A DNA stretch of 64,000 nucleotides from an uncultured Chthonomonadaceae bacterium (GTDB lineage Bacteria > Armatimonadota > Chthonomonadetes > Chthonomonadales > Chthonomonadaceae), in NCBI GenBank assembly GCA_963835065.1, contig CAWIEK010000057.1:64001-128000 (forward strand), written 5' to 3'. A model generated the notes under the pieces. The model did not search any database and was not told where the DNA came from. It saw only the letters and a program-made list of their open reading frames with translations. The position numbers and the translations under genes are program-made. Of this stretch, positions 29,407-47,284 are shown piece by piece (the first letter of the stretch is position 1; each line of letters begins with the position of its first letter).

Positions 29407-29829
29407 TCAGACAGACCAATCTTCCACTTTCAAGCCGGGTACTCTCTGGAAGTCGGACAGATTACGGGTCAACAGAACGGCATCATTGGCAAGCGCGATA
29501 GCGGCAATCTGCAAATCTTTTGTGCCAACGCGAAGACGTGACTGCCGCAAGCGTTCGTAGATGGCAGCGGCGTTCTCGTCATAATCCAGAATAGGAATGC
29601 GGCGAAACCTTTCCACATGACTCCGCAATTTCGCATACGCTTCAATCTGCTTTGAGGGCGTATTTGCTCGCGCGACATAAGCCAGCCAGCCGCGCATTTG
29701 TTCTTCATACGTGATAATGCTAACGGCAACGTCCTCTTGCGGCAATGCGGCCAGACGCCTGCCGAGATTGAAAGCCTCGATGGTATCCAAATCCAGTATG
29801 CTGAGATGGTCGGTATCCAGAACGCGCAT
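29407..29829 (-). CDS. vapC: VapC family PIN-domain toxin
   Basis: VLDTDHLS, ITYEEQMRGW, TKDLQIAAIAL and LLTRNLSDFQRVPGLKVEDW. Confidence 0.93.
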   Translation of the reverse strand: MRVLDTDHLSILDLDTIEAFNLGRRLAALPQEDVAVSIITYEEQMRGWLAYVARANTPSKQIEAYAKLRSHVERFRRIPILDYDENAAAIYERLRQSRLRVGTKDLQIAAIALANDAVLLTRNLSDFQRVPGLKVEDWSV

Positions 29830-30044
29830 CAGGAGCCAGTTTCCTCGTCTTCTACCTGCTGCGATTGCCGCCACTCGCGCCCTAATTGCATGGCTTCGAC
29901 GTACGCCGGATCGTTCTTGAACGTGCCGCGTATTTCTTCCCACCAGGGTTTTTTAACAGGCGCGGCATCCGCGCGTTGCCGCTTCAACGCTTCCACTTCC
30001 GCTTCCAATCGCGTCAGACGTTCTTCTATTTCGGTGACTGCCAT
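29829..30044 (-). CDS. Cognate antitoxin
   Basis: 71 aa, EERLTRLEAEV...PWWEEIRGTFKNDP...GREWR. TGATG overlap with vapC. Confidence 0.85.
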   Translation of the reverse strand: MAVTEIEERLTRLEAEVEALKRQRADAAPVKKPWWEEIRGTFKNDPAYVEAMQLGREWRQSQQVEDEETGS

Positions 30045-30259
30045 AAAGGAAACCTCCTCCCTAAATTGCTCTGCACAGCCAGATTATACCACAGCCCCAC
30101 TCTCACGCCATGCGTTTGCGGCGTATCTAGGCGCCTATCGCGTCAGGCCGGGCGTTTCCTCCTGAATCCACCCGGCAGGAAAGCGCAAGCATCCTGCGAA
30201 CGCCCTCCCAAGCTTGTCAGGAGAGGATCGAGGCAAAAGCAAAGGATGAAGGATGAGGG

Positions 30260-30451
30260 TATGTAGAGACAGCGTCGAAATCTTGGCAATGCAGCGCTTC
30301 CAGCCCAGTGTCTCGTTGTGTCAAATTGTAAGTAGAGGCGTCGTGACCTCAGAGGCGTCAGGGCGAACGGGAAGAGTTTACAGGCATCTTCTTGCACCTC
30401 CCTTCTGTGTTAGGGTTTTAGGTTGTTAGGTTGAGAGTTGAGAGTTGATAG
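30260..30451 (-). ncRNA. Candidate structured RNA with short ORF MPVNSSRSP* (30387-30358), copy 1
   Basis: Homologous to 47020-47194. SD GAAGGGAGGTG and a covarying stem. Confidence 0.6.
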
Positions 30452-30791
30452 AAACTACGAACGTTCTACGGCCCACCACCTGGCTGATTAGTAGACGTTT
30501 GTATCTAGTAGACAGGAGGAGTGGGGCGATAGTTTCGGTTTTTTAGCGCTGTACGGCTTTTTTGCTGTCTTTTTGCTGGATTGTGGCTGTGGGAAGAATC
30601 GGGAGAGGGCGCTTGCTTCGGTTCGTGCCTCTATCCCTTCCCGGTTACAGCTCCTGAAATCATTCGCACATTATCGTAACGTTTGCGAATTGCCACAAAA
30701 ACCGCGAAGTCTTGCCGCCATAGCAGCAGGACTTCGCGGATAGGATGCCTTGAACTGTAGGGTCCCTGTCTTGGAAGATGATTCGCGCGGG

Positions 30792-33700
30792 TTAGCGGCT
30801 GCCCTGTCCGGCCAGAACCCGCGTGGCGTAGGTGATGGGCTTGCCGGTGTCGCTGTTGGTGAAATCCAGCGTCACCGTCACGCTTGCGCCTGCCGCCATA
30901 TCGCCCGCCTGTATGGTGAGGTACGGACTGCCTGCCGGTGTGGTCGCGCTCGTGACGCCGGTTTTGTTGAACAGCGCGGCATTGCTGCTCAGGCCATCCA
31001 GCACCAGCGAAACCGGACCGGCAATGGCGGAACTGCCCGTGTTCTTGACCGTGACGCGTCTGCGCGAAACGCCCGGTGGCGCGGTTGAAGCGGAAGGCGC
31101 TGCGCGTGACGCTGACCTGCGAAGAAACGTCTGTAGCGATGTTGGGAAGTTGCGTGACGGTATCCGGCTGCGAGTGCGCGTTTTCCAGGTTGAAGGTGTT
31201 GTCCCGCGCCTGACTGTAAAAGGCATACGTGTGCCCGCCCACGCCCGTAAACGTCGCGCTCGTGTCCGTCGTATTCGTCAGCCAGGGCGTGTACGCGCCG
31301 CCGTTGTCCGAAACATAGATGGTGAAGTCCCGCAATCCCGAACCTACATCCTGCCCCTTCCACGACACAGGGAAGTTCAGCGCGTTCTGCACCCCCGCCA
31401 GTGGGTTTACCTGACTGCTCGGCTTGTCGTTGTCAATGGTATTGAACCAGATGGGTGTGAGCATGGCGGCATTCGCATCGAACACGATGGAAGCCTGATC
31501 GCGGACGATGGTTCCGGTTTTCAGGTTCTTGCGCGGCATGACGGTGAACAGCATACTGCCTTCCTGCCCCGGATCAAGGAAGCCGTTGGGATCGTCGGGA
31601 GCGAGCGGCAGACCAGTAGCCGGATTGATGGAGGTAAACGTCCACGCCAGTAGGCCGTTGTCAAGGTTCAGCTTCGCATTGACATGCACCAGCAGATTCT
31701 TCGTCGGGCGCAGGTCTACGTCGGCGTCGTACTCCCGAACGCCCGCAATGGGGTTGATATGATCTTCGGGCGTGACGGTCTGATTGCCGATAGTGATGGT
31801 TCCCAAACTTAGCGTACTCAGGTCCGCGCCGGGCAAGTCCAGTTGATCCGTGACTTTGATCACCTGCGCCGCCGCTGTCGCTTCCGGCTTATTGGCGAAG
31901 AAGACGGTATACGGCATAGGCTGTGAGCCTGATACCCACTGCGGAGCGCCGAACCCTATCGTTCCAGCGATGTCGTTTGGATCACCGGATGTGATATTCT
32001 CTCCAAAAAGATGAGCTAACGCTTCGCAAGCGAGATCAATGAGGTAATCTTGCACCTTGCTTTTGACCCAATCCTTGGGATTGAGTTCTAGAAGAGCAAC
32101 AACACACAAAACGTGAACTGCTGGTAAGGCTGGTATCAATGCAGGGAACGTGATGCCAACCGCAACATCTATGGCGAGACAGGCTTCGTATGCCTCTGGT
32201 ATGCCAGCTAAGGTTTCGACTTGCTCAACTACGAACTTGATCCATTCACAAGCCAGTTTAAAATCGAAAGGAGTTGACGGGCCAGGTGGCACAGGTGGAT
32301 TAACATAGGTTGAGTTACTTATGTTTACCTGGAAAGTGGCAGTTTGAGAATATCCGGGAACGGTCACTGTTCCAGTTGCCTGACCAGCATTTGACCAGTT
32401 CAAGTTGATGGTAGTTCCCTGTGAGTTGGTCATCAAGGTTGGCTGCAAGTGTTCATTTAATGTCACCGTTGTTACGGTTCCATCGCTGCTAGTGACTTCG
32501 TATTGACCTAACCTACTGACTCGGCCACCAACCATAACTCCGAAGTAGTCTACTGTATTACCTGACTTGGTTCTAGTTCTGATAATACGTCGCTCAGTAA
32601 GGTCTCCTATGTATATCACTCCCCCTACCAACTCCTGATTTATCCAGGCATTGACCTGAAACAGATTGTGAGCGTACCGTGGATCATCAGGTGATTTCAC
32701 ACGTAGCGAGATAGTTTGGGAACTGCCTGCTGGTACAGAAGCAAGTTGAACTCCGATAGCCGTGCTGTTCCCGCCCGTGAAGGTGTCACTGGCTTTCGCG
32801 TCTATCAATTGCCACTCGAAGTAGTTAGGGAACTGGATACGGATGTCTGCGGTGCTGGCGTCCACGTTGCCTGAGTTCTGCACTTGCACGTTGTACGTTG
32901 TCCATGCGCCGCCGCGAATCTGGCTACGTCCAATTACCTGCGTTTGCAGCAACGGTTGTTTGAGGTCTTCGACGGTGAACTGTTGGGGCAGGGTGATGAC
33001 TGTGCCGTCGGGGTTGGTGATGACGACATAGCGTGGGCCTAGCGTTGCGCCAGTCAGATCGAACGTGGTTTGTATACGCGAAGAGCCTTTGAAGTTGGTA
33101 AAAATGAACGTCTTGGTGTTCGTGCCTTGAATGTCCGGCTGTTTGTCGGCAGTCAATTTGACGGATGCGCCCTCCTGAACGCCGTTGAGGAGTATGGTGG
33201 CTGTCACACTGCCACCTTTGCCACCATGATCGGGGAAGATGTTGGTAGCCGCGATGTGGAATGTGTCGAACTCTGGCCTTTAGTGAAGAGGCGTCTCCCG
33301 CCTCATCCGTCGCGAAAGCGAACAGACGCCCATCACCTATCGACACAACGGGCATGTAATAACTTGGTTTGGGCAGGGCAGGGGCAGAAGCCCATCGGGA
33401 AGTTACAGGGTCGTAAGCATCTACTTCGGTGAACGAGGCACTATAATAGTATCTGCCACCAATGACATAGATCAAACCGTCCTGTCCGGTAACGACTGCC
33501 GATTGATTGCGCGGATTGGGCAATGAGGGAAGCGTTGTCCAGGTATTAGCAACAGGATCATAAGCAGCAAAACCTCCAGAGACGCCGAATCCTGCGTAGA
33601 TTTTCCCGTCTGGCCCTGCCGCGATAGTGATTGGATCTCCCATATAGGGCGCAGGCATTCGTGTTATCCACGTTTTTGCTTTTACATCATAGGCCAATAC

Positions 33701-34216
33701 CGTATTAGACGGGTTCCCCTGTGGACGTCCACCGATTGAATAGATTAGCCCATCCGAACCGACTGCAGTGGCGTGGGAGGTCTCATATAAAATTGGCTGC
33801 GGGAGCGACGTAACTGTAGTCCAGGTGTCGGTCACCGTATTGTAGGCTTCGACAGTCGCTACTATATTACCCGAACTGTCAACCCCACCAATGGCATAAA
33901 TCAAGCCATCCGGGCCAGCTACCACACTCAGACCGACGCGGGACGTGGGGAGTGGAGTACCCTTCGTCCAGATGTTCTTTGCCGGGTCATAGATGTCCAC
34001 CGGACTCACGGTGTCATAATAGTCAGGATGGAATTGTCCCCCAACGACATAGATGCGACCATCAGGGCCGACAGCGGCTCCGAAGCCTGCACGCGGTGTC
34101 GGCATGACGGTTGGCTGCGTCCAGCCCGCCTGGGCGAAAGATCGAGATGGCACACAGGTCAGCAAGCAGACCAGAAGTACGAGGATAGAAAGTAGCTGGC
34201 ATAAAGTGCGGTTCAT
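30792..34216 (-). CDS. Large secreted protein: Kelch propeller + Ig-like domains + Cys-rich helical segment + DPN-motif domain, frameshifts near 33250 and 31058
   Basis: Signal peptide SFA-QA, Kelch repeats (IYVVGG...YDP...W), SGDPNDIAG, YTVFFAN and ASIVFDAN. Three overlapping ORFs join into one protein. Confidence 0.8.
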
Positions 34217-34335
34217 CCTACAAGTCTCCCTTCAACAATAGTACAGAGATAACCATCACGAGCAAGGCATCAGCCCGAAAAGACGCGCAGGTAAACGCCT
34301 GACAGACTGGACCACTGAGTTCAAGTTGGCTAAGA

Positions 34336-35970
34336 TTAGCCTTGTAAATGCTGGGCCGTTCCCACGAGCCAGAGAGTGCCGTCATTGCTGAAGGTGACGG
34401 CGTGGGGCGTCACGTCGGCAGGGAGTGGGATGCGCTGCTGCAATTTGCCGTCCGCCGCGTACACGGCAATATCGCGGCTTGTATTGCAGGGAATATAGAA
34501 CCGTTCCTCTTGCGCATGGAAGGCGAACGGGCCATGATATGCGTCCTCCGCCCGCCAGCAACGCAGGAACTCGCCTTCGGCATCGTAAATCTGCATCATC
34601 GGCTCTTCCGGTTTCTCCCGACTGTTGCTACAACGCAACGCAGCGAGTTCTCCGCCGGGAAGCGATTGAAGGCCGGGAAAGTAGGTATCCATCGGCAGTT
34701 GCGCGAACGTCCGCCGCAGTTTCCCCTCGCGTGTATACAGGCCGATAGAACCACCCCGGGTGCTGTAGTGCGCCAGGTACAGACGCTCCTTTGCCGCCAA
34801 TGCGATGCAGGTACAGCATTGCAGAATCAAGGGCTGGACGTGCCCGCCGCCGTTAGTGAATCGTTGCAGCGCATTCCCCGATGTCATCAGCAGCCTGCCC
34901 GAAGCATCGAACGCCATGCCTTTGCCATCGCTAAGCGCGGCGAGGGTGGAACGTCCGCCATAAAAGACGCGCTGCTCCGCGCCGTCCGGCATAAATTCAA
35001 TGACTTCCTGCTGATTTAGCCCTTCCCGTATGGCTCGCTTATGCACCACATACACCCGACCTGGGGTAAAGTCCTGACGCCGCGCTGCGGGCGGCGCAAT
35101 CGCAAGCCCGGCGGGATAGCGCAGCCGCCCCGGCCCGACGATCTGCCGCGCCCGATACACCTTTCCCGCCTCCGGTTCCAGGCAATACAATACGCCGGAA
35201 GACGGAGACGGGTTTGCCGCATAGCCCAACGGCACGGAAGCCGCGTTGGTTGCCAGCATCAACATCATGCCGAAGGATGCCAGTTCCTGCCACTGCGCTA
35301 TGTCTGACAGGTTTTCCAGGCTGTGCGCTGAAATCTGGCAGTCCAGGGGCGAATAGTCACGCGCAAAACAGCGCGCCGTTTCATTTACAAACTTCATCAC
35401 GTCCAGGGGTAAATGGCCCATTGCAATCGCGACGGCCACAGCCTCCTGCGGACTCTGCGTGTTCAGGCGCGTTTGGATGCTTTTCAGAATGTTGTTGATG
35501 TTGGCGGGCGCGCAGCCGCGCTGCATCGCAATTTGCGCGGGCGTTTTGCCCTGCGCGAAAAGAACCAAAATTTCAATCTGCGTTTCGGTCAGCCGCTTTT
35601 TGCCATCCTCGGTCACGGCTTCCTTACGCCGATGGCGCTGTTCGGGAAACAGATTGCCGAACAAGACTTGCAGGACTTCGCCGTTTCCCAACAAAGACGG
35701 CAGACGGTGCAGCATTTCGGCGCGGCGCGGGTCTTCGTCCAGCGTTTGCCGAATGTCGGTAACAATCTTGCGCAGCCAATCGAATTCTGCCAGAGCGGGC
35801 GCGCTGAAGTCGTTTTCCGGCACAGCGTAGGTTCCGGCTTCTGCCTCACCTTCCGCAACAAGCGCTTCCCCGGCCAGATACAGCGCGGAAGTCATCTGCG
35901 CTTCAGCGGCGTAAGGATGGGCAGAAGGCGGGTCAGGTGATTGTGAAGAAGCCTTGTCCGGTTCGCCCAT
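34336..35970 (-). CDS. LuxR-type HTH + C-terminal NHL-like beta-propeller regulator
   Basis: LTETQIEILVLFAQGKTPAQIA...NILKSIQTRL and propeller blades (GMAFDASGRL). ATG 35970 after AGGAAGG. Confidence 0.75.
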   Translation of the reverse strand: MGEPDKASSQSPDPPSAHPYAAEAQMTSALYLAGEALVAEGEAEAGTYAVPENDFSAPALAEFDWLRKIVTDIRQTLDEDPRRAEMLHRLPSLLGNGEVLQVLFGNLFPEQRHRRKEAVTEDGKKRLTETQIEILVLFAQGKTPAQIAMQRGCAPANINNILKSIQTRLNTQSPQEAVAVAIAMGHLPLDVMKFVNETARCFARDYSPLDCQISAHSLENLSDIAQWQELASFGMMLMLATNAASVPLGYAANPSPSSGVLYCLEPEAGKVYRARQIVGPGRLRYPAGLAIAPPAARRQDFTPGRVYVVHKRAIREGLNQQEVIEFMPDGAEQRVFYGGRSTLAALSDGKGMAFDASGRLLMTSGNALQRFTNGGGHVQPLILQCCTCIALAAKERLYLAHYSTRGGSIGLYTREGKLRRTFAQLPMDTYFPGLQSLPGGELAALRCSNSREKPEEPMMQIYDAEGEFLRCWRAEDAYHGPFAFHAQEERFYIPCNTSRDIAVYAADGKLQQRIPLPADVTPHAVTFSNDGTLWLVGTAQHLQG

Positions 35971-36049
35971 AAAATCCCTTCCTGCCGAAGTAAAATGCTC
36001 AGTGGGTAACGTGGAGAAGTATAACACAAAATGGGAAAATGTTTTGGTT

Positions 36050-36546
36050 GTCAATTGCAACCATTCTGGCCGGGATTTTGGAGCGGAAGAGGGGGAAGGA
36101 AGTGATGAATGATGAGTGATGAGTGCTGAATGAACTGCATTTTGTTCATCATTCATCATTCCGCGTTCAGCATTTCCTTCTGTTCCCTTGCTCACCGACA
36201 GTCCGGCATCGTGGAGGCACAAGTTGCGATGTTCTTCAACAAAGGCAAGCTGTTCGGATGTAAGAGAAGCAGACGCAGCAAGGCGGGCAAGAAGAGTGGC
36301 GGCGGAACGGAAGTCACGGAGTTGGCAGGCTTGCTGCGCTTGTTGGTACAGGGGATGGGCTTGCACAACAACAAGGGCGTTTTGTTGCGATGTGGGAGGA
36401 ACAAGCGCGGCGGGATGTAGGCGCGGCACGGCGGCAGACGCCCGCTTGGACGCCAACGCGGCGGAAGGAGGCGCGTGGGAGCAGCCCGTCAGCAGGCACA
36501 GGCCGCAACAAAGCAAAGGAGAACGAACACTACGCCATACGAACAT
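36050..36546 (-). pseudogene. Truncated lipoprotein (LTGC lipobox, TPR-like helices) ending at palindromic element copy 3 (36101-36174)
   Basis: Open in frame with the LuxR gene, but the intervening sequence is AT-rich and intergenic-like. Confidence 0.45.
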
Positions 36547-36877
36547 CAGCAACCGCGCCTTTCCGAGATCAACCGGAAACACTTTGCCCAGGGCAAAGCG
36601 CAAACGTCAACAAACAACGTCACAGGCAAACGGCAAACGCAATACAGCAAGGTAAAAATGACGGATTAGAACCGAAACATTTAGAACGATGCAGACGCAT
36701 CCGACTAAATTGTGGGAAATCGGGAAACAGGAACAGCGTCGCCGCAAGTTTGATGCAGACACGCCTTTAGAATGATTTTCTTTCCGTTTTATGTCATTCA
36801 ATGTCAGTAAACAGCGAACCGCCAATCACTAACCACCAACCACCTATTTCTTCCTGTCTGATTATTCCCGGATAAAA

Positions 36878-36911
36878 ATAACCGCCGCAGGCAATTGCCT
36901 GCGGCGGTTAT
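36878..36911. terminator. Perfect palindrome downstream of the 36967-39510 gene
   Basis: ATAACCGCCGCAGGCAATTGCCTGCGGCGGTTAT. Confidence 0.7.
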
Positions 36912-36966
36912 ATGCTTCCTATCTTGGTCTGCGCCTATCAACTATCAACCACCGACTATCAACTCC

Positions 36967-39510
36967 TCATCCTCGCAAATGCTCCACTTTCTCCACATAC
37001 CGGCAGAGCAGTTGGTTGGCGGTGTCGGGGTTATCGGCTTCGGCGTATATGTGGAAGAACGGCTCGGAAGCGTCCGGCAGCACGAGCGCCCAGTTGTGAT
37101 TGCTCTGGAAGAACTTGATGCCGTCTATCAGTTCGACGTGTTCGCCGTTGTGACCGTTGTTGCTGTCGGCTTCTTTGGTCAGGACGCGCATGATGCGCCC
37201 CTTCATCTCCCACGGACAGCGCACATTCGCCCGCACTACATGCGCAAGGGGCAGTTCCGAAGACAGTTCCGAAAGGCGCAGGTCGCTCACGGTCAGCATT
37301 TCCAGCAATTTGCCGAACGCGAACATGGCGTCGTAACTGGGCTGGAACTCCGAAAAGATAAACCCGCCATTGTCATCCCCGGCGAAATCCACGCGCGCCG
37401 GCTGACTTGAACTGCCGGAACACATTTCCATCAGGTTGCGCGCGTCGGTTTTCGTGCGCTGCACGGTTGCCCCGTGCAGTTCCGCCAGCGATTCGATCAT
37501 GCGCGGCGCGGTCACGGGCACGGCGATGCGGGCGCGCTCTTTGGTGCGCGCGACCAGGACCGCCATGATTGCCAGCAAATTGTTGTGGTCTATCACTTTG
37601 CCGTATTCATCAATCAGGGTCATGCGTTCGCCGTCCGCCTCGAACAACACGCCCATATCGGCATGAAGGCTTTGCACGATCTGCGACAGATTGGGCAGCA
37701 GCGCGGCGCGGGCTTCGGGCGTTTTCGGCGTTTTGTTCACGTCCGCGTAAGCGTTCAGCGCGATGAGGTCAATGTCCATGCGCCCCAGCATCGTCGGGTA
37801 CACGCTGCCCAGCCGCCCGAACGCGAAATCCGCCACCACTTTCAATTGGCGATTTTTTACGACATCGGCCTTGACATGGCGGTAGAAATCTTCGCCGTAT
37901 TGTTCTACGCTGCGGCTGGAAAATTGCAGTTCTCCCACCTGATCGGCGTCCACGCGGCGGAAATCTTCGCGGAAGAAAATGGTTTCCACCTTGCGCTCGG
38001 CGTTTTTGGACAGATAAATGCCATGCTCGTCAAAGAACTCAATGACCAGCATCTTGGGATCGTTGGGCGCGAGCCGGATGTGAACGCCGCCTGTCGCCTG
38101 CGTCCCCAAAATTCCCAGACGCGCGACGGGCAGGGGCATGGAGCGCATATCCACGACATTGACGCCCACGGACAGCAGGCCGGAAATCATCGCCCGCTTC
38201 ATCATGCGCGCGACCGGTCCCGAATCGCGGTTGGTCACGACGGTTGCGCCTTTTTTGAGATAGCCGCCAAAGCTCGCGCCCAATTTGCAGGCGAAATCCG
38301 GCGTCATTTCGATGTTGGCGATGCCCATCACGCTGTTGTTGCGGAACAGCGACCCGGCCCACTTCTGTCCCCAGATCAGCGACATCGTGACCGTACTGCC
38401 CGCCTCGATGATTTTATCCGGCCACAGTTTAATCTGAGTGCGGATGGTGGAATCGTCTTCGATGCGGCAGCGCGCCCCAATGACCGCGCCTTCCTGCACG
38501 TCGCAGTTGGCCTTGATGGTGGCATACGAGCAGACCGTACACGCGCTTAACTGCGTGTCCACGCCCACGTACACGTTATCCCAAATTACGCTGCGATACA
38601 AACGCGCCTTTTCCTCGATGATGCAGTTGTCGCCGATAACGCTGTAGGGTCCCACAGTCGCTTCGGCTTTGATTTTGCAGTTGCGCCCAATAACGACGGG
38701 CGCGACGATATGGGCGCTGGGGTCAATGTCGCTGCCTTCGCCCACCCACACGCCGTTGCCCCGGCCTTCCGAGGAGCCGCTGCCGATACGGATGCGGGTT
38801 CTGCCGTCCAAAACCGTATACTGCGCTTCGCGGTACTGCTGCAAGTTGCCCACGTCGCACCAGTAATCCTCCGCCATCACATAGCCGAACATGGGCTTTT
38901 CTTCGGCCAGTATCTGCGGGAAAATATCGTGGCTCCAGTCGTAATTCTTGCCCATCTCCATATAATCGAAAATGGACGGCTCCAGAATATACATGCCCGT
39001 GTTGACCGTATCGGAAAACACTTCGCCCCACGAAGGCTTTTCCAGAAAGCGGCGGATGTGGCCTTCGTCGTCGGTAATGACAACGCCGAACTCCAGGGGG
39101 TTCGGCACATGGGAAAGCACGATGGTCGCCACGCTGTTCTTCTCGCGGTGGTAGGCAATGGCTTTGTCCAGGTCAATGTCGGTGAGCGCGTCGCCGCTGA
39201 TGATGAGGAAGGTATCATCGCGCAGGTGTTCTTCCGCCTGCTTTACGCTGCCCGCCGTTCCCAAAGGCGTATCTTCCACCGAATAGATAAAATTGACGCC
39301 CCACTCGGCCCCATCGCCGAAATAGCCTTCGATCTCATCCGCCAGATAGTGAAGCGTGACAACGATGTCGGTTATGTCGTGTTCCTTGAGGAGCAGGACG
39401 ATATGCTCCATAATCGGAATGTTGAGCGCGGGCGCAAGCGGCTTGGGGCGCTGGGAAGTCAAGGGCCGCAGGCGCGTACCCTCCCCGCCGGCCATGATGA
39501 CGGCTTTCAT
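36967..39510 (-). CDS. Bifunctional mannose-1-phosphate guanylyltransferase / phosphomannomutase-like protein
   Basis: MKAVIMAGGEGTRLRPLT, PLGTAGSV, FLEKP, hexapeptide repeats and PGM/PMM domains. Confidence 0.95.
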   Translation of the reverse strand: MKAVIMAGGEGTRLRPLTSQRPKPLAPALNIPIMEHIVLLLKEHDITDIVVTLHYLADEIEGYFGDGAEWGVNFIYSVEDTPLGTAGSVKQAEEHLRDDTFLIISGDALTDIDLDKAIAYHREKNSVATIVLSHVPNPLEFGVVITDDEGHIRRFLEKPSWGEVFSDTVNTGMYILEPSIFDYMEMGKNYDWSHDIFPQILAEEKPMFGYVMAEDYWCDVGNLQQYREAQYTVLDGRTRIRIGSGSSEGRGNGVWVGEGSDIDPSAHIVAPVVIGRNCKIKAEATVGPYSVIGDNCIIEEKARLYRSVIWDNVYVGVDTQLSACTVCSYATIKANCDVQEGAVIGARCRIEDDSTIRTQIKLWPDKIIEAGSTVTMSLIWGQKWAGSLFRNNSVMGIANIEMTPDFACKLGASFGGYLKKGATVVTNRDSGPVARMMKRAMISGLLSVGVNVVDMRSMPLPVARLGILGTQATGGVHIRLAPNDPKMLVIEFFDEHGIYLSKNAERKVETIFFREDFRRVDADQVGELQFSSRSVEQYGEDFYRHVKADVVKNRQLKVVADFAFGRLGSVYPTMLGRMDIDLIALNAYADVNKTPKTPEARAALLPNLSQIVQSLHADMGVLFEADGERMTLIDEYGKVIDHNNLLAIMAVLVARTKERARIAVPVTAPRMIESLAELHGATVQRTKTDARNLMEMCSGSSSQPARVDFAGDDNGGFIFSEFQPSYDAMFAFGKLLEMLTVSDLRLSELSSELPLAHVVRANVRCPWEMKGRIMRVLTKEADSNNGHNGEHVELIDGIKFFQSNHNWALVLPDASEPFFHIYAEADNPDTANQLLCRYVEKVEHLRG

Positions 39511-39907
39511 ACGAATCCCCCATTATCCGCGATACGCTTCCAAAGCATGGTGCGTATCGCCAGTGTGCGATGTTTGATTTTGGCTATTCGGCCCACAGCG
39601 CGCCGTTTGCCCATGCGAGACTACAGCGAGACGGCCTCCGTGCCGTACAAAACAGTCTCATTTCTGTAAGAAAAAGGCGGCGCTATGCCGTTGAATTTGA
39701 ATTCCGTGTTAATGCTAATACGGCGACAGTATAAATTTTGCAGCAATGTTGTGGCGGAAATGGCGGAAATCGCATTGGATATTGCTTCGAAAATTTTCTC
39801 TACGCGCATTTTTCACAGAGCGGTATTAAGAGCGCATGGTATCCGACATATTCTGTCAATCCTGCTTGATGGCATGGCTGCCCGGCATCCTTTTGTTACT
39901 CGGCTTA

Positions 39908-40363
39908 TTAGTCGGCAGGGGAAGGCTCGGCGCGCAGGCAGCGGTCCGCAACGCCCAGGCACAGCAGGACGCCGCCAATCAATCCGACCACTACGCCCGG
40001 AAGCAGGGCAAAACGTGTCAGGGCGATAATCACGCAGGCAAACGCGCCTGCGCCCCCGACGGCGGCCAGCGCAATCCGATTTCTGGCCGTCGCATCCCAC
40101 AGCAGCGTACACGCGCACAGCGCGGCGCAGATCGTCAGCGGCAAGGCGCAGCCCGCGCCAAAGCCATTGTGCTGTACGGTCAGGCTTTCCACATGCACGG
40201 CCCCAACCGGGAAAGTCGGAAACTGCTCCGGGCGCTGCACCTTCCAGGTCAGAAACAGGCTGGAAATAACCGTTACCATGCCAAGCAGGATGGCCGCCTC
40301 GGCCCGCGTCAAAAAGCGGCGCATCGCAGGCGGCGCAAAGGGTTTTGGTTGTGGCCCGGACAT
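39908..40363 (-). CDS. Hypothetical membrane protein
   Basis: Four hydrophobic segments. ATG after GGAG. Confidence 0.6.
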   Translation of the reverse strand: MSGPQPKPFAPPAMRRFLTRAEAAILLGMVTVISSLFLTWKVQRPEQFPTFPVGAVHVESLTVQHNGFGAGCALPLTICAALCACTLLWDATARNRIALAAVGGAGAFACVIIALTRFALLPGVVVGLIGGVLLCLGVADRCLRAEPSPAD

Positions 40364-40728
40364 AGCTAAATTCTCCCCGAAAACGTTCCCGCAATCCTCA
40401 TTTACTTCTCGCCCCGTGAAATCAATTTCTCTCCACGCGCACATGAGCAGAGAACAGGCCGCGCGATTGGAAACCAAAACTACATTCGACACCGTATGCG
40501 GCAACTCCTTGTTCGTAAAATGAAAATTTCTCATCTCAGGCCGCGCATTTTGCGGGAGTTGGTATTTTGCATGATTTAGCCCTATTTTCTGGTAAAAAGG
40601 AGAAAAATGTCTGTAATTTAGAGGTGGAAGCGCGTGAGAAGGCTTGCGTTTGGCGCAAGTCTATGCTATCATAGCCGCATTGTAACCCTGTCTCAAGCAA
40701 ACGCAAACTCACCGGCAAGGAGAACCTC

Positions 40729-41088
40729 ATGGCGTATTCGCACAAAAGCAACAAATCCGGCACGACCTACTACTTACATTCTAAAGAAACCGAGTCGCGC
40801 GGCGGTAAGCGCACCCTGTTTTTCTTCAGCAAAGAAGTGAAAGAGGCGAAAGACGGCACGCTCCCCCTCGACGCGGTTCCCGAAGGCTACACCGTGACGG
40901 AAAGCGCGCAAACCGGCCTGCCGCTGCTCAAGAAGGCGGACAAAGGCGAAGCGGCGGAAGCGCCTGCCGCAGCGGAAAAGCCCGCCAAAGCAGACAAGCC
41001 CGCCAAAGCGCCTGCGGCGGCGAAAGCGGACAAACCGGCAAAAACGGAAGCGGCTGCAAAAACCGATAAGAGCAAAGCGAAAAAATGA
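40729..41088 (+). CDS. Small basic protein with Ala/Lys/Pro-rich tail
   Basis: AAGGAG SD. GTTYYLHSK...LFFFSKE...TGLPLLKK followed by KPAKA repeats. Confidence 0.8.
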   Translation: MAYSHKSNKSGTTYYLHSKETESRGGKRTLFFFSKEVKEAKDGTLPLDAVPEGYTVTESAQTGLPLLKKADKGEAAEAPAAAEKPAKADKPAKAPAAAKADKPAKTEAAAKTDKSKAKK

Positions 41089-41339
41089 GCGCGGCCAATG
41101 ACGGCAAGCGTCAGGGCGCAGATGTTGTGGTGCAGGGGTATTGTGTCCACTGCCGCAGCCGGCGTCAGATGGTGGGCGCAATTCAAGTCTGCAACAAGCG
41201 CGGCGGACGCGACCTGAAGGGACTTTGCAGCATTTGCGGCAAATCCATGTACCGTCTGGGCGGTTGGGATTCCGTTGTCGCCGCCGCGCAGGAAACCGAC
41301 AAAAACAGCCGCACTCAGAACACTCCACCAGAAGAGTAG
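41085..41339 (+). CDS. DUF5679-like zinc-ribbon protein
   Basis: YCVHC...LKGLCSICGKSMYR. ATGA overlap with the upstream gene. Confidence 0.7.
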   Translation: MSAANDGKRQGADVVVQGYCVHCRSRRQMVGAIQVCNKRGGRDLKGLCSICGKSMYRLGGWDSVVAAAQETDKNSRTQNTPPEE

Positions 41340-41356
41340 TACAGCAAATGTTTTGA

Positions 41357-41400
41357 AAAATGCCTGCCTCCTTCCATTATCGGAAGAAGGCAGGCATTTT
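41357..41400. terminator. Rho-independent terminator
   Basis: AAAATGCCTGCC...GGCAGGCATTTT. Confidence 0.75.
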
Positions 41401-41420
41401 CATAACTCACTTAAAATCGT

Positions 41421-41449
41421 TTGACAATGCCACGAACATGGCCCATAAT
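41421..41449 (+). promoter_or_regulatory. Sigma70-like promoter TTGACA-N17-CATAAT
   Basis: Near-consensus. An ATG follows 5 nt after the -10. Confidence 0.65.
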
Positions 41450-41454
41450 TCCGC

Positions 41455-41565
41455 ATGATTGCCGCGTCACCGCCACTGCGTTTCCTGGACACTAACGTCT
41501 GTATTGACATTGTTCTGGCTCAGGCGACGGCGAATTCTCCCACCTGGCGCAACGGCAAAGAGTAA
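41455..41565 (+). pseudogene. Leaderless PIN-domain N-terminal fragment
   Basis: MIAASPPLRFLDTNVCIDIVL (PIN DTN motif), cut off where the xisI 3' end lies on the opposite strand. Confidence 0.55.
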
Positions 41566-41855
41566 AATCCCAGCACGATACGGTCTTTCGGTACGCCTTC
41601 CGCCACCAGTTCGGAAGCGATGCCTTCTTCCGTATTGTCGGTCAACACCCATATTTTGCCGTCCCGTATCTCCAGATAGGCAAGCAGCCGCGCGTCATAG
41701 CGATCTCCGGCAAAACTGACGTTTTGTAGTGTGTAGCGGTCGTGCGGCGCGTCCTGTACGCTGACGATTTTCCAGTCACTCGGCATACGCGGCAGCTTTT
41801 CCCATTCAGCAAACACGCGCCCAATCGCTTCGCGCAAAGTGTCTACGATTTCCAT
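41520..41855 (-). CDS. xisI: XisI family protein
   Basis: DRY, LEIRDGKIWVLTDNTEEGIASELVAEGVPKDRIVLGF. Confidence 0.9.
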   Translation of the reverse strand: MEIVDTLREAIGRVFAEWEKLPRMPSDWKIVSVQDAPHDRYTLQNVSFAGDRYDARLLAYLEIRDGKIWVLTDNTEEGIASELVAEGVPKDRIVLGFYSLPLRQVGEFAVA

Positions 41856-42195
41856 GCTACAATCTCCTCGCGTTCCACTGAAAAATAAAAACTGAAAAAT
41901 AAAACAGGCGGTTTATATGCTCCTTCAGCATCAACTGTCCTAATTCCTCGCTTAAAATGGAATCGCGCACTTCTTCGGAAACAGCAAGATAAAGTTCTCG
42001 ATCCGGTTCTACCTGTGACAGAATACTTTTGTACATGAGGAACTGGCCCATAGCCTGCTGCAAGTCAGCGACGGGCGAGGCGCCGCCAAAGGTTTTAATC
42101 TCTACTGCAATTCGCTTCGTATCGCGCTCTGCCCCGATCAACACCCTTTCCGCTCCTACATCAACCGAAAGTGTTCGCTTGCCAACGACAAAGAA
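41843..42195 (-). pseudogene. xisH: XisH family nuclease, 5'-truncated and frameshifted by a 14-bp duplication
   Basis: VDVGAE, IAVEIKTF, AMGQFLMY and EPDRELYLAV. ACTGAAAAATAAAA is duplicated at 41877-41904. Confidence 0.85.
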
Positions 42196-42208
42196 GGAAT
42201 GCCGTATG

Positions 42209-43135
42209 CTAAAGTATTATATCTGACCCTTCAACGATGAAGTGACAGATACTATTTTCTAACGACGCCTCTAATATACGATTGAGGACGTACTTCTTTA
42301 AGGCAAATGGTTGTTGAGCCAAGCGTAGAAAGTCAAACATCACTATCCCTAGCTCCTTACCATTAGACATAGGGTTCTGTCCGCCAATTTCGCGTTGTAT
42401 GCGTTTTAGCAGAAGCGCGGCTTCTTTACCTGACACATCAATGCGAAAGATTAAGCCACCGGGGAATGGCTGCTCTTGCTGGTGAAAACCGCAGGCGTCA
42501 TACGAGTACAGGATACTCCCGCCCATGAGTGTGCAGCTCAGGCTTTTGCGGTGTCCATCCGGGTAGTAATCGTATTCCAGCGTGAACACATAGGGCATCG
42601 CGGCGTATTTGGTTGTCGCCGTCAGCACGTTGCCCAGGCAGTCGTAGGTATACGACAGGGTAAGCCTGCTGTCCTGCGCGCTTTTCACGCGGCCAAACGC
42701 ATCGTATTCGTAATGTACGGACGGCAGCGCGTTTTGCCCGTACTGCACGTCGGTCACGCGGCTGTCATCGGGGGCGCGGGTGTACCACGTATCGCGGTCC
42801 TGCTCGTCCAGCGTGTGCGCGACATTGCCTTCGGGATCGTAATCGGCCTGCAGCCTCTGGCTGTTCTTGTTGATGACCTGCCGCAGATTGCCCACATTGT
42901 CGTAAACATGCTGAAACGTTCTGCCGTTGCCGTCTGTCAGCTGGCGCAGGCGGCTCAGGCCATCGTACTGGAGCCGCGCCTGCTCGCCGCTGCCCTGCTG
43001 CATCGTGGACGCGCCCTCGCCGTTCAAACTCACGCCTTCCTGCCGTACCGCCATTCCGTTGCCCGCGTACAACACCGTGCCAACCGCCGGCCTGCCGGGA
43101 TAAGCATACGCACTCACAACATAGCTGCGCCCCAT
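42209..43135 (-). pseudogene. Internal RHS/YD-repeat fragment fused to an unrelated low-GC fragment
   Basis: YDGLSRL, YDNVGNL, YEYDAFGRV, YTYDCLGN and YYPDGHR. No RHS core or DPxG. GC shifts near 42480. Confidence 0.75.
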
Positions 43136-43244
43136 GTTAAAATCGCAACCTTTTCCATGCCAGCCCTGTCTTATGAGCAACAAGGAAATAGTAGGCCGAA
43201 TTCATCGAGCAAGCAAGCAAAAATTTTAGAGGAATTTTCAGGCA

Positions 43245-43910
43245 ATGATAGAAGACGCGAGGCACATCTTTACCGATGCCTATTTTCGATGGCAAGATGG
43301 ACTAATAGTAGCAAGCCACTTCCGGCAAGTGACTCGAACAAGTGTGCCATTGGGAAGAGAAGCAGCATTCCAACATGCAATGAACATTGCACAAAACCAT
43401 CCTCAGATGGTCAGCATGTTTCAAAATCAGAACCTTTCTCAAAATGCAGAGATGCAAAATATCTTTGCGAACAAGGCGGCTGATGTTTTTGCAGAAAATG
43501 TAATTACCGCTATCAATGCTGCCTCACTGTTGTTCATTTACGCCACATTGGACAGCGTACTGAGCGACCATCTGCATTGTTCGGCCTTGATAGCCTGTCA
43601 CGACTGGAAATCAGTGATCGTAAACGACAAATTTACTGCCGAGCAATTCGCTGGCCTATCGGACGATGAACTCGCAAGGAAGGTGCATAAATGCCGGTTA
43701 AACCTCAAAGAACGAAGCGGATTGTCGGCAAAGGCTGAGGCTCTCTGCAAAATCTGCAATCCGTCTGTTGACCTTATGAGCAAAGAAGGTATTATTTACG
43801 ACAGCAAGCGTTTATATCAACTGACTCAAGCCCGCAATGAGATTGCGCATGGGGATGGGTTACGGAAACCTATTCCTGATTTCGAGGATGAGTTGCGCTT
43901 TCTGATCTGA
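43245..43910 (+). CDS. HEPN-like protein, possibly prematurely stopped
   Basis: C-terminal ARNEIAHG (Rx4H). The frame stays open about 30 codons past the TGA. Low GC. Confidence 0.55.
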   Translation: MIEDARHIFTDAYFRWQDGLIVASHFRQVTRTSVPLGREAAFQHAMNIAQNHPQMVSMFQNQNLSQNAEMQNIFANKAADVFAENVITAINAASLLFIYATLDSVLSDHLHCSALIACHDWKSVIVNDKFTAEQFAGLSDDELARKVHKCRLNLKERSGLSAKAEALCKICNPSVDLMSKEGIIYDSKRLYQLTQARNEIAHGDGLRKPIPDFEDELRFLI

Positions 43911-43994
43911 TGCGGCAACTATTTCTTCAAAGCGACCCAAGCAAAATATAACCTGTCGCTAGATTGGCAATACTACATGAACAAACACTCGGCA

Positions 43995-44357
43995 TCAGGA
44001 TAGCTCCGCAAGGGCTTGTTGAAGCTGTTCTTCGGTTTCATCGCCCGGCCACTTGCCGGAAACCATGTCCGCCAGCGTTTTACCCGGCGGCGGCGTTCTT
44101 CTCGGCTGATAGCGTTCCATTGCGCGTTGCTGTGCCTGCGCAAGTTGTTCCGGCGTACGGTGCGTCATTTCGTAAATGGCGCGTTCCAATGGCGTTTGCT
44201 CCTGCATTTCTGCCTCCTGCGCATCTATTGTTTGCGTTGTCTCAATATGTACTTGTACCACATCGCCAGGATGCAATCCTAATTCAGCAACCATTTCTTT
44301 CGGAACAGTAAGCGAACCATCCCCCGTAAGTGGGGCGGCAAAAGCAATAGCCGTCAT
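43995..44357 (-). CDS. AbrB/MazE-like antitoxin (orphan)
   Basis: GSLTVPKEMVAELGLHPGDVVQV and GKWPGDET. GAGGAGG SD. Confidence 0.75.
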   Translation of the reverse strand: MTAIAFAAPLTGDGSLTVPKEMVAELGLHPGDVVQVHIETTQTIDAQEAEMQEQTPLERAIYEMTHRTPEQLAQAQQRAMERYQPRRTPPPGKTLADMVSGKWPGDETEEQLQQALAELS

Positions 44358-44719
44358 GCCTCTTTCCTCCTCAGAACCGAATGTCGTATTGCACAGTATA
44401 CCATGCCGCAATATGTGATGACAAAAAGTAAAAGCGCAGGTTTCCTTGTTCGAAAGAACCTGCGCTTTATACATAGAGGATAGAGTCTATACTTCTGGCG
44501 CGATGCTTTTGCAGGCGGGGGCGGCTAGTATTACAACGACGGGTTTGGGGTAAAATGTAAAATCCCTATTCGGCATGGCGGGAGAGGCTGCAACCCTGAC
44601 CGCCTTTTTCATTCACACCCAATCACACCATAAAAGCATGTATTGGCTCATGTTTTTCAGAAAATAGTTTGAAGGTGTCCATACTTTTTGGTATACTGTC
44701 TGGCAGGGATGATAAAGAT

Positions 44720-44947
44720 ATGCTCACAGTTCAGCAGGTGGCAGAAATGCTTGGAGTGAACCAGAACTCTGTTTACCTCGCTGCCAGTGAGGGACCTTTG
44801 CCCTACTCAGAAATGTTGGGGCGCAAAGTCATTGTCCGTGCTGATGCAGAGGCGTACCAAGAACGTACCCGCGTCAGTGGCGAGAAGCCGAAGGGCAGGC
44901 CGAAGGGAAGTGCGAACCGGAAGAAGATAGACGCAGGAGAAAGTTAA
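44720..44947 (+). CDS. Excisionase-like HTH DNA-binding protein with AT-hook-like tail
   Basis: MLTVQQVAEMLGVNQNSVY...KPKGRPKGS. Confidence 0.75.
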   Translation: MLTVQQVAEMLGVNQNSVYLAASEGPLPYSEMLGRKVIVRADAEAYQERTRVSGEKPKGRPKGSANRKKIDAGES

Positions 44948-44950
44948 ATA

Positions 44951-45919
44951 ATGGCTTCTTTCACATTCCAAATAAAATTAATGGTTTCGCGCAGTATTGC
45001 TATTGTTAGTGAACAGCAGGTTTTAGAACTTGCTAGACCTAGTGAAAACACGGTTATTACTCTTGAATCTCTCATTGATAAGTCTATACAACAAGCGTCT
45101 TTCCTACGTGTTAAAGGTACAGGTTACCACTCAGAGGAGGCAGCCTTTGAAGCAGGGCAGACTTGGCTTCGAGTTTTGATGCTGACTTTGGCAAGAGTAC
45201 GCATGGGCACAGACTTCAGCAGGGCTAAGCCATCGGCGGCTTTTATACCCGCCAATTATCCTTCCGCATCGTATGAAGGTGTAAAAGAAATACCAGAGAG
45301 ACAATTAGTAGATACCACATATGGAATTGTAGTATACGATGCTGACAAACTTACCCGTTTTGCCGGGACTGGAAGTGCAATCCATGCAATCCATTCCGTA
45401 CTAGGTGAGAATCTGGTTCGACTAGCCAACAACATCAAGGAGAGGTTTCCCACAATAAATCTTAAAGAGGAAATTGCCTTTGAACTTTTCAATGCTTCCT
45501 TTTTTGAGGTTTCAACACGCACACGATTCTTATTGCTTGTTATGGCAATTGAGGCACTAATTGAACTCACGCCGCAAAGCGATCAGGCAATAAAGCATGT
45601 CGAATTCCTAATGCTACAAACTAAGAATTCTCTCACGCTTTCAGCTAGCGAGAAAGCGTCCTTTACTGGCAGTTTACGATATATGCTGAACAAGTCAATT
45701 GGTAAAAGAGGCCGTGATTATGTTGCGCAGCGTCTTGGAGACCGCCAGTATCAAGGTAAACAGGCTGAGAATTTCTTTACATACTGTTATAGTCTGCGTA
45801 GCGAACTTGTTCATGAAGGCCAAACAGAAGCAGGCATTAATATGAAGGCACTGGTATATATTTTGGAAGGGTTTGTGTCAGACCTGTTATGCGCAAACAT
45901 CCTAGACATTCCTAAATGA
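44951..45919 (+). CDS. ApeA-like HEPN domain protein
   Basis: RFLLLVMAIEALIE...YSLRSELVHEG (Rx4H). Low GC. Confidence 0.65.
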   Translation: MASFTFQIKLMVSRSIAIVSEQQVLELARPSENTVITLESLIDKSIQQASFLRVKGTGYHSEEAAFEAGQTWLRVLMLTLARVRMGTDFSRAKPSAAFIPANYPSASYEGVKEIPERQLVDTTYGIVVYDADKLTRFAGTGSAIHAIHSVLGENLVRLANNIKERFPTINLKEEIAFELFNASFFEVSTRTRFLLLVMAIEALIELTPQSDQAIKHVEFLMLQTKNSLTLSASEKASFTGSLRYMLNKSIGKRGRDYVAQRLGDRQYQGKQAENFFTYCYSLRSELVHEGQTEAGINMKALVYILEGFVSDLLCANILDIPK

Positions 45920-46099
45920 CTTAACTATAGTGATTGAGAAGAGCCTATTTGACAGTGGCATTGCAAGCCCTTCCCCATCGGCGGGGCTTGCAGCATTTAC
46001 ACCGGGCACACTCAACGCAGGAGGCAAGACAGCCATGCACACCTTCATTACGGTTCCCGAAGCCGCCGACCTATGGGCTACAGGCCGCGCACAAGTCTT

Positions 46100-46894
46100 T
46101 CAGTCTTCCCCACCCTCTTCCATGTCGTGAAGCAAACTTCCCTGCTGCCAGACGCCCTTTAGAGGCCGCTCTACGCCTGTTTTAGCAGGACAAACGTTCT
46201 TGTACGGGCAAGTCGTGCAACCGATTCCCGGCGTAGGCTTCCATGCTTTTTCCTGTTGAATACTCGCACAGGTTGCGTCCACCCACTCTACCGTAGCCTT
46301 CAACGTAGCGCGATTCGCGGGAAAAACCTTTTCCTCTCCATGTCGCAGGTAGTATAGCCTCACGTCCGCCACAGGAAGCCCCAAACCGTGTTCCGCCAAG
46401 ATTTGGTAAAAGCCCAATTGTCGCGGATTGAAACCTGTTTCGCCCTCCGGTAGCAATTTGTCCAATTTGTAATCAATAACGCTGTATCGGTTATCGTCGC
46501 GCAGGTCAATGCGATCCACAACACCGCTGAGGTTGTAGGGGCCAAAAGACAGTCTAATCACTTGTTCATGGTGTGTGGGCAAACGTCTGAGACGGTTCTC
46601 GCGTTCCGCAAAGGCGCGTAGAATAGTCTCGCTTTCACGATACGGTTGAGAATTACGTACATCCGGCGAACGCGGTAAATCGTAGACGTGCGCCAGGGCG
46701 TCGAGTAAACCCTGCTCCTCGACCACGCCGTCTTTGCGCCCTCGGACGTAGTAACTGCGAATCGCGGCGTGAATACGCTTTTGGAACGTCAGAGACGTGA
46801 TCGGAGGCCGGGGCAGGCGCTCGATGTAGCCATACCGATATTTGAGCCGGCAGTCGCTGAAGGTTTTAAGTTTTGTATAGGACAAGTTCATCAA
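46100..46894 (-). CDS. RecB/Cas4-like PD-(D/E)XK nuclease with 4-Cys cluster
   Basis: LSYTKLKTFSDCRLKY, GVVDRID, VIDYK, QLGFY and CTTCPYKNVC. Confidence 0.88.
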   Translation of the reverse strand: MMNLSYTKLKTFSDCRLKYRYGYIERLPRPPITSLTFQKRIHAAIRSYYVRGRKDGVVEEQGLLDALAHVYDLPRSPDVRNSQPYRESETILRAFAERENRLRRLPTHHEQVIRLSFGPYNLSGVVDRIDLRDDNRYSVIDYKLDKLLPEGETGFNPRQLGFYQILAEHGLGLPVADVRLYYLRHGEEKVFPANRATLKATVEWVDATCASIQQEKAWKPTPGIGCTTCPYKNVCPAKTGVERPLKGVWQQGSLLHDMEEGGED

Positions 46895-47019
46895 AAATTA
46901 AAAAAACTTTGCACCATGCGAAAAAAAGAACACTTTCCACCTTCTAAAATGCCTGCGAAGTGTGAATATATCTGCAAATCAGCCAGGCGGCGGGACGGGG
47001 GAGAGTTAGAGCGGAGTTC

Positions 47020-47194
47020 CTATCAACGAACAACCTGACAACCTAACCCGGAAGGGAGGTGCAACAAACATGCCTGTACATACGCGGGCGCCGTAACTCT
47101 AATGAGGTCACGACGCCTCTGCTAAAAACTAGACACAATGAGGCGGAGTGCTGGAAGCGCTGCATTGCCAAAATTTCGACGATGCCTCTACATA
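47020..47194 (+). ncRNA. Candidate structured RNA with short ORF MPVHTRAP* (47070-47096), copy 2
   Basis: Homologous to 30260-30451 on the opposite strand. Confidence 0.6.
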
Positions 47195-47284
47195 TTCTTT
47201 TATTTTCCATTTAGATGCGGTCGCCCTGAACGCAGGTTTTCCTGATGCGGAAGGACCTGCGCTCTATGCATTAAAAGGTAAAGA

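Follow-up and report, generated by a model that had tools for sequence, protein, structure and literature searches.

The window analysed here, a 64-kb stretch of the 8.0-Mb, 71-contig genome of an uncultured Chthonomonadaceae bacterium (G000), contains two copies of a short element in which a Shine-Dalgarno (SD) sequence, a micro-open reading frame (micro-ORF) ending in proline and a stop codon, and a conserved RNA domain follow one another, and the micro-ORF of this element is under selection as a reading frame. The copies had been noticed in an earlier sequence-only reading as two homologous stretches, 30260-30451 on the reverse strand and 47020-47194 on the forward strand, and this homology was borne out by mutual blastn alignment (E 4e-33). 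They are not a pair, however, but 2 of 162 full-length copies found in G000 by profile search, each scoring at least 134 bits and 161 of them differing in sequence, with no partial copies at E<=1e-3. Covariance models identified a further 46 full copies and one partial copy in G002 and 13 copies in G001, both of which are congeners of G000.

Conservation of the reading frame and of the RNA domain

An SD, an ATG and a frame of 8, 9 or 11 codons closing with (R/H/L)-(S/P/A)-P-stop were present in 155 of the 162 G000 copies, the in-frame endings being RSP (115), RPP (25), HPP (6), LPP (5) and RAP (4). Of the seven others, two start with ATT instead of ATG and five carry frameshifts, which in four cases fall in C runs, where sequencing error may be responsible. 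The R/H-x-P ending is found in 150 of 162 copies, against a background of 44 of 5,751 called genes with such a C-terminus, and the codon following R-x-P is a stop and not proline in 161 of 162 copies. All 46 full copies in G002 contain an 8-9-codon ORF, with the final proline and the arginine at -3 each retained in 44, and these copies make use of all four CGN codons, all four proline codons (CCN) and two stops (26 TAA and 20 TGA). All 13 copies in G001 end in PP-stop with differing N-termini, one of them using TAG; seven encode nine-residue LPP peptides, and six are of RPP type, with 16-17 residues when counted from the start nearest the SD and, in one case, a stop inside the frame. Across the genus, all four proline codons, four arginine codons and all three stops are therefore represented. 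A spacer of 7 nt separates the stop from the first hairpin of the RNA domain, P1, in 211 of 221 copies (157/162 in G000, 43/46 in G002 and 11/13 in G001), although the last three positions of this spacer vary freely; the linker further downstream varies in length (30-33 nt). Codon-level conservation and a spacing that is fixed despite free spacer letters together point to selection both on a translated C-terminus and on how far from P1 it lies.

Both SDs in the window (7 and 8 nt ahead of the ATG), both micro-ORFs, the hairpin, the conserved 22-mer and the stem closing it were found at the positions first proposed, and the parts of the two copies are as follows.

30508..30536, reverse strand: copy 1 promoter-like motif of extracytoplasmic function (ECF) type (GAAACT, 17 nt, GTCTAC) with A-tracts upstream; putative promoter
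30491-30496, reverse strand: second GTCTAC word of copy 1
30406..30485, reverse strand: variable leader of copy 1, a AGCCAGGTGGTGGG block and 7-nt C/A-rich repeats
30395..30405, reverse strand: SD of copy 1, its GGAGGTG complementary to the 3' end of the G000 16S rRNA (CACCTCC)
30358..30387, reverse strand: micro-ORF of copy 1, MPVNSSRSP-TGA
30335..30350, reverse strand: hairpin P1 of copy 1, first base 7 nt past the stop
30260..30314, reverse strand: P2 domain of copy 1 around the loop AGCGCTGYATTGCCA (30284-30298), followed by CTACATA
30607..30643, reverse strand: remnant upstream of copy 1, likely a decayed ISAzo13-type miniature element, judged by likeness to the flanks of other copies
46942..46969, forward strand: copy 2 alternative promoter-like motif (TTCTAA ... 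TGTGAATAT), without the ECF motif; putative promoter
47051..47061, forward strand: SD of copy 2
47070..47096, forward strand: micro-ORF of copy 2, MPVHTRAP-TAA
47104..47119, forward strand: hairpin P1 of copy 2, 7 nt past the stop
47140..47194, forward strand: P2 domain of copy 2, loop at 47156-47170, followed by CTACATA
47210..47228, forward strand: right terminal inverted repeat of copy 2, from an ISAs1-family miniature shell

Several features that appeared general from these two copies proved narrower across the family. The MPV start belongs to a minority of copies, the commonest peptide being MFHPSRSP (51/162), and the supposedly invariant 22-mer is exact in 70 of 162 copies and has one mismatch in 86. 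The covariation described for the closing stem is real as an A-U/G-C change between the two window copies, but the pair is mismatched in most G000 copies and can form only in the 28 with T at that 3' position. The near-invariant part of the RNA domain is instead its 15-nt loop, AGCGCTGYATTGCCA, which carries one substitution in 1 of 46 G002 copies and is nearly unchanged in the LPP subfamily of G001, where the P2 stem has been rewritten. In a structure-blind alignment of 66 copies (13/13 from G001, 32/46 from G002 and 21/162 from G000), a three-helix model left 91.2% of cells paired versus 87.7% after shuffling, with 30 double changes versus 14.3 (0/500 shuffles reaching this number), and P1 and the inner part of P2 were 99% and 98% paired, respectively.

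Other roles considered for the core were rejected. A read-through or frameshift product would be conceivable, with the +1 frame open in 130 of 161 copies, yet the core variants comprise 6 synonymous versus 44 non-synonymous changes, and their synonymous share is similar in all six frames, indicating that the core is non-coding in all six. Pairing of the loop to 16S rRNA gave a best run of 6-7 nt, which shuffles equalled, and mimicry of transfer-messenger RNA (tmRNA) was discarded as a genuine tmRNA gene lies elsewhere. Antisense matches to the loop outside the copies numbered 0 exact and 5 with one mismatch, and antisense targets were not enriched. Retro-mobility was likewise discarded, as each genome holds just 1-2 reverse transcriptase genes, none of them next to a copy, and the upstream promoter motif is part of the unit that is conserved.

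Distribution, promoter-like motif and transposon shells

The covariance-model searches covered 42 genomes of the family, 68 of the order and 151 of the phylum, and there were no credible matches outside the three congeners among the 39 other family genomes, the 65 other order genomes and a phylum sample of 150, four stray matches of 20-22 bits being treated as chance. The exact 22-mer had no match in metagenome contigs. A degenerate-core pattern yielded, among the at least 40 matches listed from genome contigs, 30 true copies, every one belonging to the two congeners, and 10 chance matches, while its 15 matches in metagenome contigs were all chance (<=16.5 bits) and viral contigs gave none; phage and plasmid collections likewise contained no match to the element. 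The element corresponds to no family recorded in Rfam, with 0 matches at the gathering threshold in the window and only chance matches at E<=10 over copy 1, and possible resemblances to preQ1-like, SECIS-like and SRP-like RNAs found no Rfam support. Two unusual loci were noted within G000: an orphan front half at G000:C54:109069 on the forward strand, with a full promoter motif and the start of a leader but neither ORF nor core behind it, and a near-identical tandem pair 1.1 kb apart at G000:C30:37002 and 38094 on the reverse strand, the sole pair closer than 8 kb, in which both members have ATT instead of ATG and lack the ECF motif.

In 141 of 162 copies (146 by a looser rule) the SD is preceded, at a distance of 29-185 nt, by a GAAC...GTCTA motif that has A-tracts upstream, and 107 of 112 strict matches in the genome sit at copies; because the pattern was derived from the copies, part of this near-exclusivity reflects common descent. 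The -10 consensus of ECF promoters is of GTC type, and the motif resembles such promoters in its GAAC-type -35, its GTC-type -10, the 16-17 nt between them and the A-tracts upstream. Passages of PMC3326320 describe ECF promoters with A-tract UP elements and a GGAACTT -35. In 10 of 46 G002 copies and 5 of 13 G001 copies the ECF motif gives way to a second promoter class, of which copy 2 of the window is the only clear example in G000. Although 57 sigma-r2 matches were found in G000, a search for the cognate sigma factor by way of autoregulation returned no strong promoter match ahead of a recognisable sigma gene. Separately, a second GTCTA-like word occurs 17-20 nt past the -10 box in 113 of the 141 copies and could be an operator repeat.

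Shells of two unrelated insertion sequence (IS) families, ISAs1 and ISAzo13, have carried part of the family. Complete ISAs1-type shells of 453-653 bp with 19-bp terminal repeats surround 11 copies, and 7 of these 11 have a 10-bp target duplication matching at 9/10 positions or better. Two full-length G002 elements (1,271 and 1,243 bp) have these repeats at their ends, and one of them scores 402 bits on NF033564 as an ISAs1-family transposase; the two lie at L140:609-1880 and L141:1381-2624 and have no adjoining target duplication. No ISAs1-type transposase was found in G000. A 1,361-bp ISAzo13-family element (PF07592/NF033519) occurs twice in G000, at C41:162052-163413 and C53:451923-453284 (L136 and L137), and its 3' end adjoins 33 of 162 copies compared with 32 of 3,396 control windows. 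Its transposase spans two overlapping frames, and some 20 miniatures derived from it, 78-108 bp long, are flanked by TTA/TAA. No shell end of either family is present at 90 of 162 copies, and most of the family has no complete shell; as to ISAs1-type ends in the window, copy 1 has none and copy 2 has the right end only, with neither a left repeat nor a target duplication found upstream of it. The possibility that the element is itself an IS end applies in part, since a terminal repeat of ISAs1 type lies 15 nt beyond the core of copy 2, but the cargo is not IS sequence, and an origin from within an IS was rejected as neither full-length IS contains a match to it. Among ten sibling shells, identity reaches 93-95% in the core, versus 71-87% for the left arm and terminal repeats.

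The positions of the copies turn over within the genus. In flank tests of 34 congener copies, a G000 copy was found at the matching place in 6 of 42 tests (5 loci), versus 1.1% by chance, and was absent in the other 36, and the shared sites hold different peptide types. The 3' haplotypes assort across peptide classes, making recombination between copies likely, which weakens the claim of selection on every copy. It was also observed that both flanks of a congener copy map together in G000 in just 2 of 34 cases, so that copies may sit at rearrangement breakpoints.

The genes described around the window copies, a PIN/VapC-like gene behind a 71-aa ORF and a PD-(D/E)XK/Cas4-like nuclease, are present. 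The 71-aa ORF (no family match) overlaps the PIN/VapC-like gene at 29407-30044 on the reverse strand, with an XisI-like gene beyond, and an SD at 30053-30060 belongs to the pair. A little downstream of copy 1, 30171-30189 on the reverse strand is part of another common intergenic repeat (a …CTTTCCTGCCGGG… hairpin), also seen next to many other copies. Elsewhere in G000, one copy is convergent with the RNase J gene (G000:C53:219588-220753), probably by chance given one copy per 49 kb, and a tRNA-Sec gene lies at G000:C1:196596-196693, the ARAGORN list also containing a 'tRNA-Stop' call.

A possible ribosome-pausing RNA and its alternatives

Of the roles first suggested for the element, that of a translated Pro-stop micro-ORF joined to a conserved RNA in a stand-alone unit is supported by the codon-level conservation, the fixed stop-hairpin distance, the upstream promoter-like motif and the gene context, while the attenuator and type I toxin-antitoxin roles, weighed below, are not. 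A tentative explanation, and the one favoured here, is that the element is a stand-alone small RNA on which a ribosome pauses at the Pro-stop, shields the 3' domain from decay at the 5' end and presents the loop. Transcription would start from the ECF-type promoter, whose motif is nearly private to the family, and a ribosome would load at the strong SD, synthesise 8-9 residues and pause at the proline-stop. P1, fixed 7 nt past the stop, would then lie at the mRNA entrance, if the usual geometry of paused ribosomes holds here, and the parked ribosome could thereby block 5'-to-3' decay; an RNase J gene is present in the genome. P2 might display its 15-nt loop to a putative protein partner or to the paused ribosome itself. 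Capture by the ISAs1- and ISAzo13-family shells would have raised the copy number, with recombination probably keeping the copies mosaic. Published work is compatible with individual steps: Pro-stop slows termination, PP-stop being the strongest and most tagged (PMC7246954, citing Hayes 2002), short peptides can arrest at stop codons (PMC11890864, PMC12407103), and stalled ribosomes and strong SDs stabilise RNA (PMC7509114), as described in passages of these sources. Of 24 sequencing runs listed, 6 were RNA libraries, with small shares (small shares in the remaining runs being no evidence of habitat), and each of the four metatranscriptome libraries compared with window positions 29900-30900, the region of copy 1, gave one contig confined to 30258-30405 (one also covering 30433-30461). 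In a more ambitious form of this explanation, which seems unlikely, almost the only members of a sigma-factor regulon would be the roughly 160 regularly spaced copies of a single RNA, each clamping a ribosome at its proline-stop, in an RNA-based parking system whose dose the host had raised by way of two transposon families.

A number of observations weigh against the favoured explanation. Twelve copies in G000 and G001 end in LPP or similar without Arg or His, two G002 copies lack the final proline, and predictions have the SD base-paired (with an unpaired probability averaging 0.09 over 41 copies). A C-terminal proline had no expression effect in a Mycoplasma library, according to passages of PMC7246954. 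In the structural alignment the outer part of P2 was 82% paired and a double change occurred in just 5 of 18 pairs, a number that shuffles matched (208/500); the double changes come from a small number of subfamilies, and a shuffle control can be outperformed by sequences that are related. Folded singly, the window copies do no better than shuffled sequences (z +2.13 and -1.43). With an excess of pairing in the alignment but few covarying pairs and unremarkable single folds, a folded 3' domain is moderately supported. A scan for intrinsic terminators found none, and searches of the 16S rRNA and the rest of the genome revealed no partner or target of the loop. The contigs from the RNA libraries derive from relatives at a depth of 2-7, three of them extend 32-99 nt beyond the U-tract, in one case reaching sequence that resembles a terminal repeat, and from carried-over DNA, too, a repeat of 160 copies would be the first to assemble; being contigs that give neither strand nor level, and given this possible carry-over, they are a weak hint that the element is transcribed. 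Finally, copies that do nothing could be preserved by gene conversion, which would exaggerate the apparent selection on each.

This last point is central to the next most probable reading, though one considered distinctly less probable than the pausing RNA, that one or a few ancestral copies are functional and the rest were amplified by transposons and kept intact by gene conversion and not by per-copy selection. Such an origin would account for the two shell families, each with full-length partner IS elements, for the mosaic haplotypes, for the 36 of 42 flank tests without a G000 copy and the differing peptide subtypes at shared sites, and for a copy number ranging from 13 to 162 within one genus. 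However, the frame is intact in G002 despite heavy synonymous divergence, and conversion alone does not filter in this way; degenerate or partial copies number none in G000 and one in G002, and the 90 copies without a shell end still keep promoter, ORF and core.

Somewhat less probable again is that the paused ribosome is itself the output, with many co-induced RNAs acting as a brake under stress by sequestering ribosomes, tRNA(Pro) or release factor, and the 3' domain clamping the paused complex. The over-expression of TnaC, which inhibits growth by trapping tRNA(Pro) (as described in PMC11890864), provides a precedent, and the near-private promoter motif, high copy number and fixed stop-to-hairpin spacing are in keeping with it, but the tmRNA would rescue or tag paused ribosomes, and 13 copies are all that G001 has.

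The arrangement of copies along the chromosome raises the improbable alternative that each serves its own neighbourhood as a transcription barrier, domain boundary or DNA-binding site. Copies are over-dispersed, with 4 of 105 within-contig gaps below 10 kb versus 27.6 and 23.0 expected under two nulls (0/2,000 draws under each), and between co-directional genes they face against them by 57 to 24. Even spacing of this kind could nevertheless arise by recombinational loss of close repeats or by insertion exclusion, there is no strand polarity (58 direct and 47 inverted neighbours), positions mostly differ between species, and the codon-level selection would be left unexplained.

A role as cis attenuator or leader of the next gene, which for copy 1 would be the vapC operon, is marginally more improbable still. 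The anatomy resembles the TnaC and PepNL leaders and a same-strand gene lies ahead of 61 of 161 copies, but such neighbours are depleted (38% versus 59% expected, p 8e-8), lie a median of 219 nt away and are mutually unrelated, the largest cluster among neighbouring genes being 7 of 318. The next gene is on the opposite strand at 100 of 161 copies, versus 41% expected (p 8e-8); these figures come from a home-made gene caller (6,797 genes), which at 76% coding under-calls genes. The depletion argues that the copies are not attenuators and, with the unrelatedness of the neighbours, that the orientation of copy 1 towards the vapC operon is incidental. The type I toxin-antitoxin unit is very improbable, as a multi-copy small ORF with a predicted occluded SD would suit it but a peptide of 8-9 mostly polar, hydrophilic, Pro-rich residues, free to vary at its N-terminus and conserved at its C-terminus, does not, and no antisense partner was found outside the copies nor any Rfam antitoxin match.

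Relation to known systems and significance

The element shares with TnaC and PepNL/NanCL a short ORF, a conserved C-terminus and a stop codon in the A site, TnaC also being Pro-ended (passages of PMC11890864, PMC12407103 and PMC7246954). Unlike these single-copy leaders of a downstream gene, it is present in 13-162 copies with no preferred downstream gene and has a conserved RNA domain fixed 7 nt past its stop. The R-x-P at the P-site end, the tolerance of His for Arg and the free N-terminal module are reminiscent of the RAPP/RxPP peptides (ApdA, ApdP and SecM-like), but arrest by these requires a Pro (or Gly) codon in the A site, as described in PMC10951233, and identity with them was rejected since the A site holds a stop in 161 of 162 copies. 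Non-autonomous shells, terminal repeats, target duplications, an internal promoter and an intergenic location are also features of transposable elements of the miniature inverted-repeat type (MITEs) such as Correia and the Coxiella QMITE1/2 (PMC10969869), and MITEs carrying promoters, small RNAs or ORFs are already known (passages of PMC10969869; see also PMC5896051). In contrast to Correia and QMITE elements, one cargo is here found in two unrelated IS-family shells or, in 90 of 162 copies, without a shell end, the cargo is more conserved than the terminal repeats, and there is codon-level selection on an internal micro-ORF. Protection of downstream RNA by a ribosome that is bound or stalled close to the 5' end, proposed here, is described for the ermC leader and STAB-SD in PMC7509114; those protect mRNA, whereas the RNA protected here would be a non-coding domain of about 95 nt.

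No publication on the element or on a comparable multi-copy arrest-ORF RNA was found in open full texts, although the supplements of non-coding RNA motif surveys could list it. To our knowledge, the arrest peptides described so far act as cis switches and are present in single copy, and small RNAs borne by MITEs are not known to contain a selected reading frame. If the proposed explanation is true, ribosome pausing would here be put to a new use, the pause of the nascent peptide serving a non-coding domain that the same short RNA carries, and the element would be a host gene amplified by unrelated transposons and kept intact in up to 162 copies. The more than 200 natural variants also provide a means of asking which residues slow Pro-stop termination, a question that can be tested in cell-free systems with no need for culture of the host.

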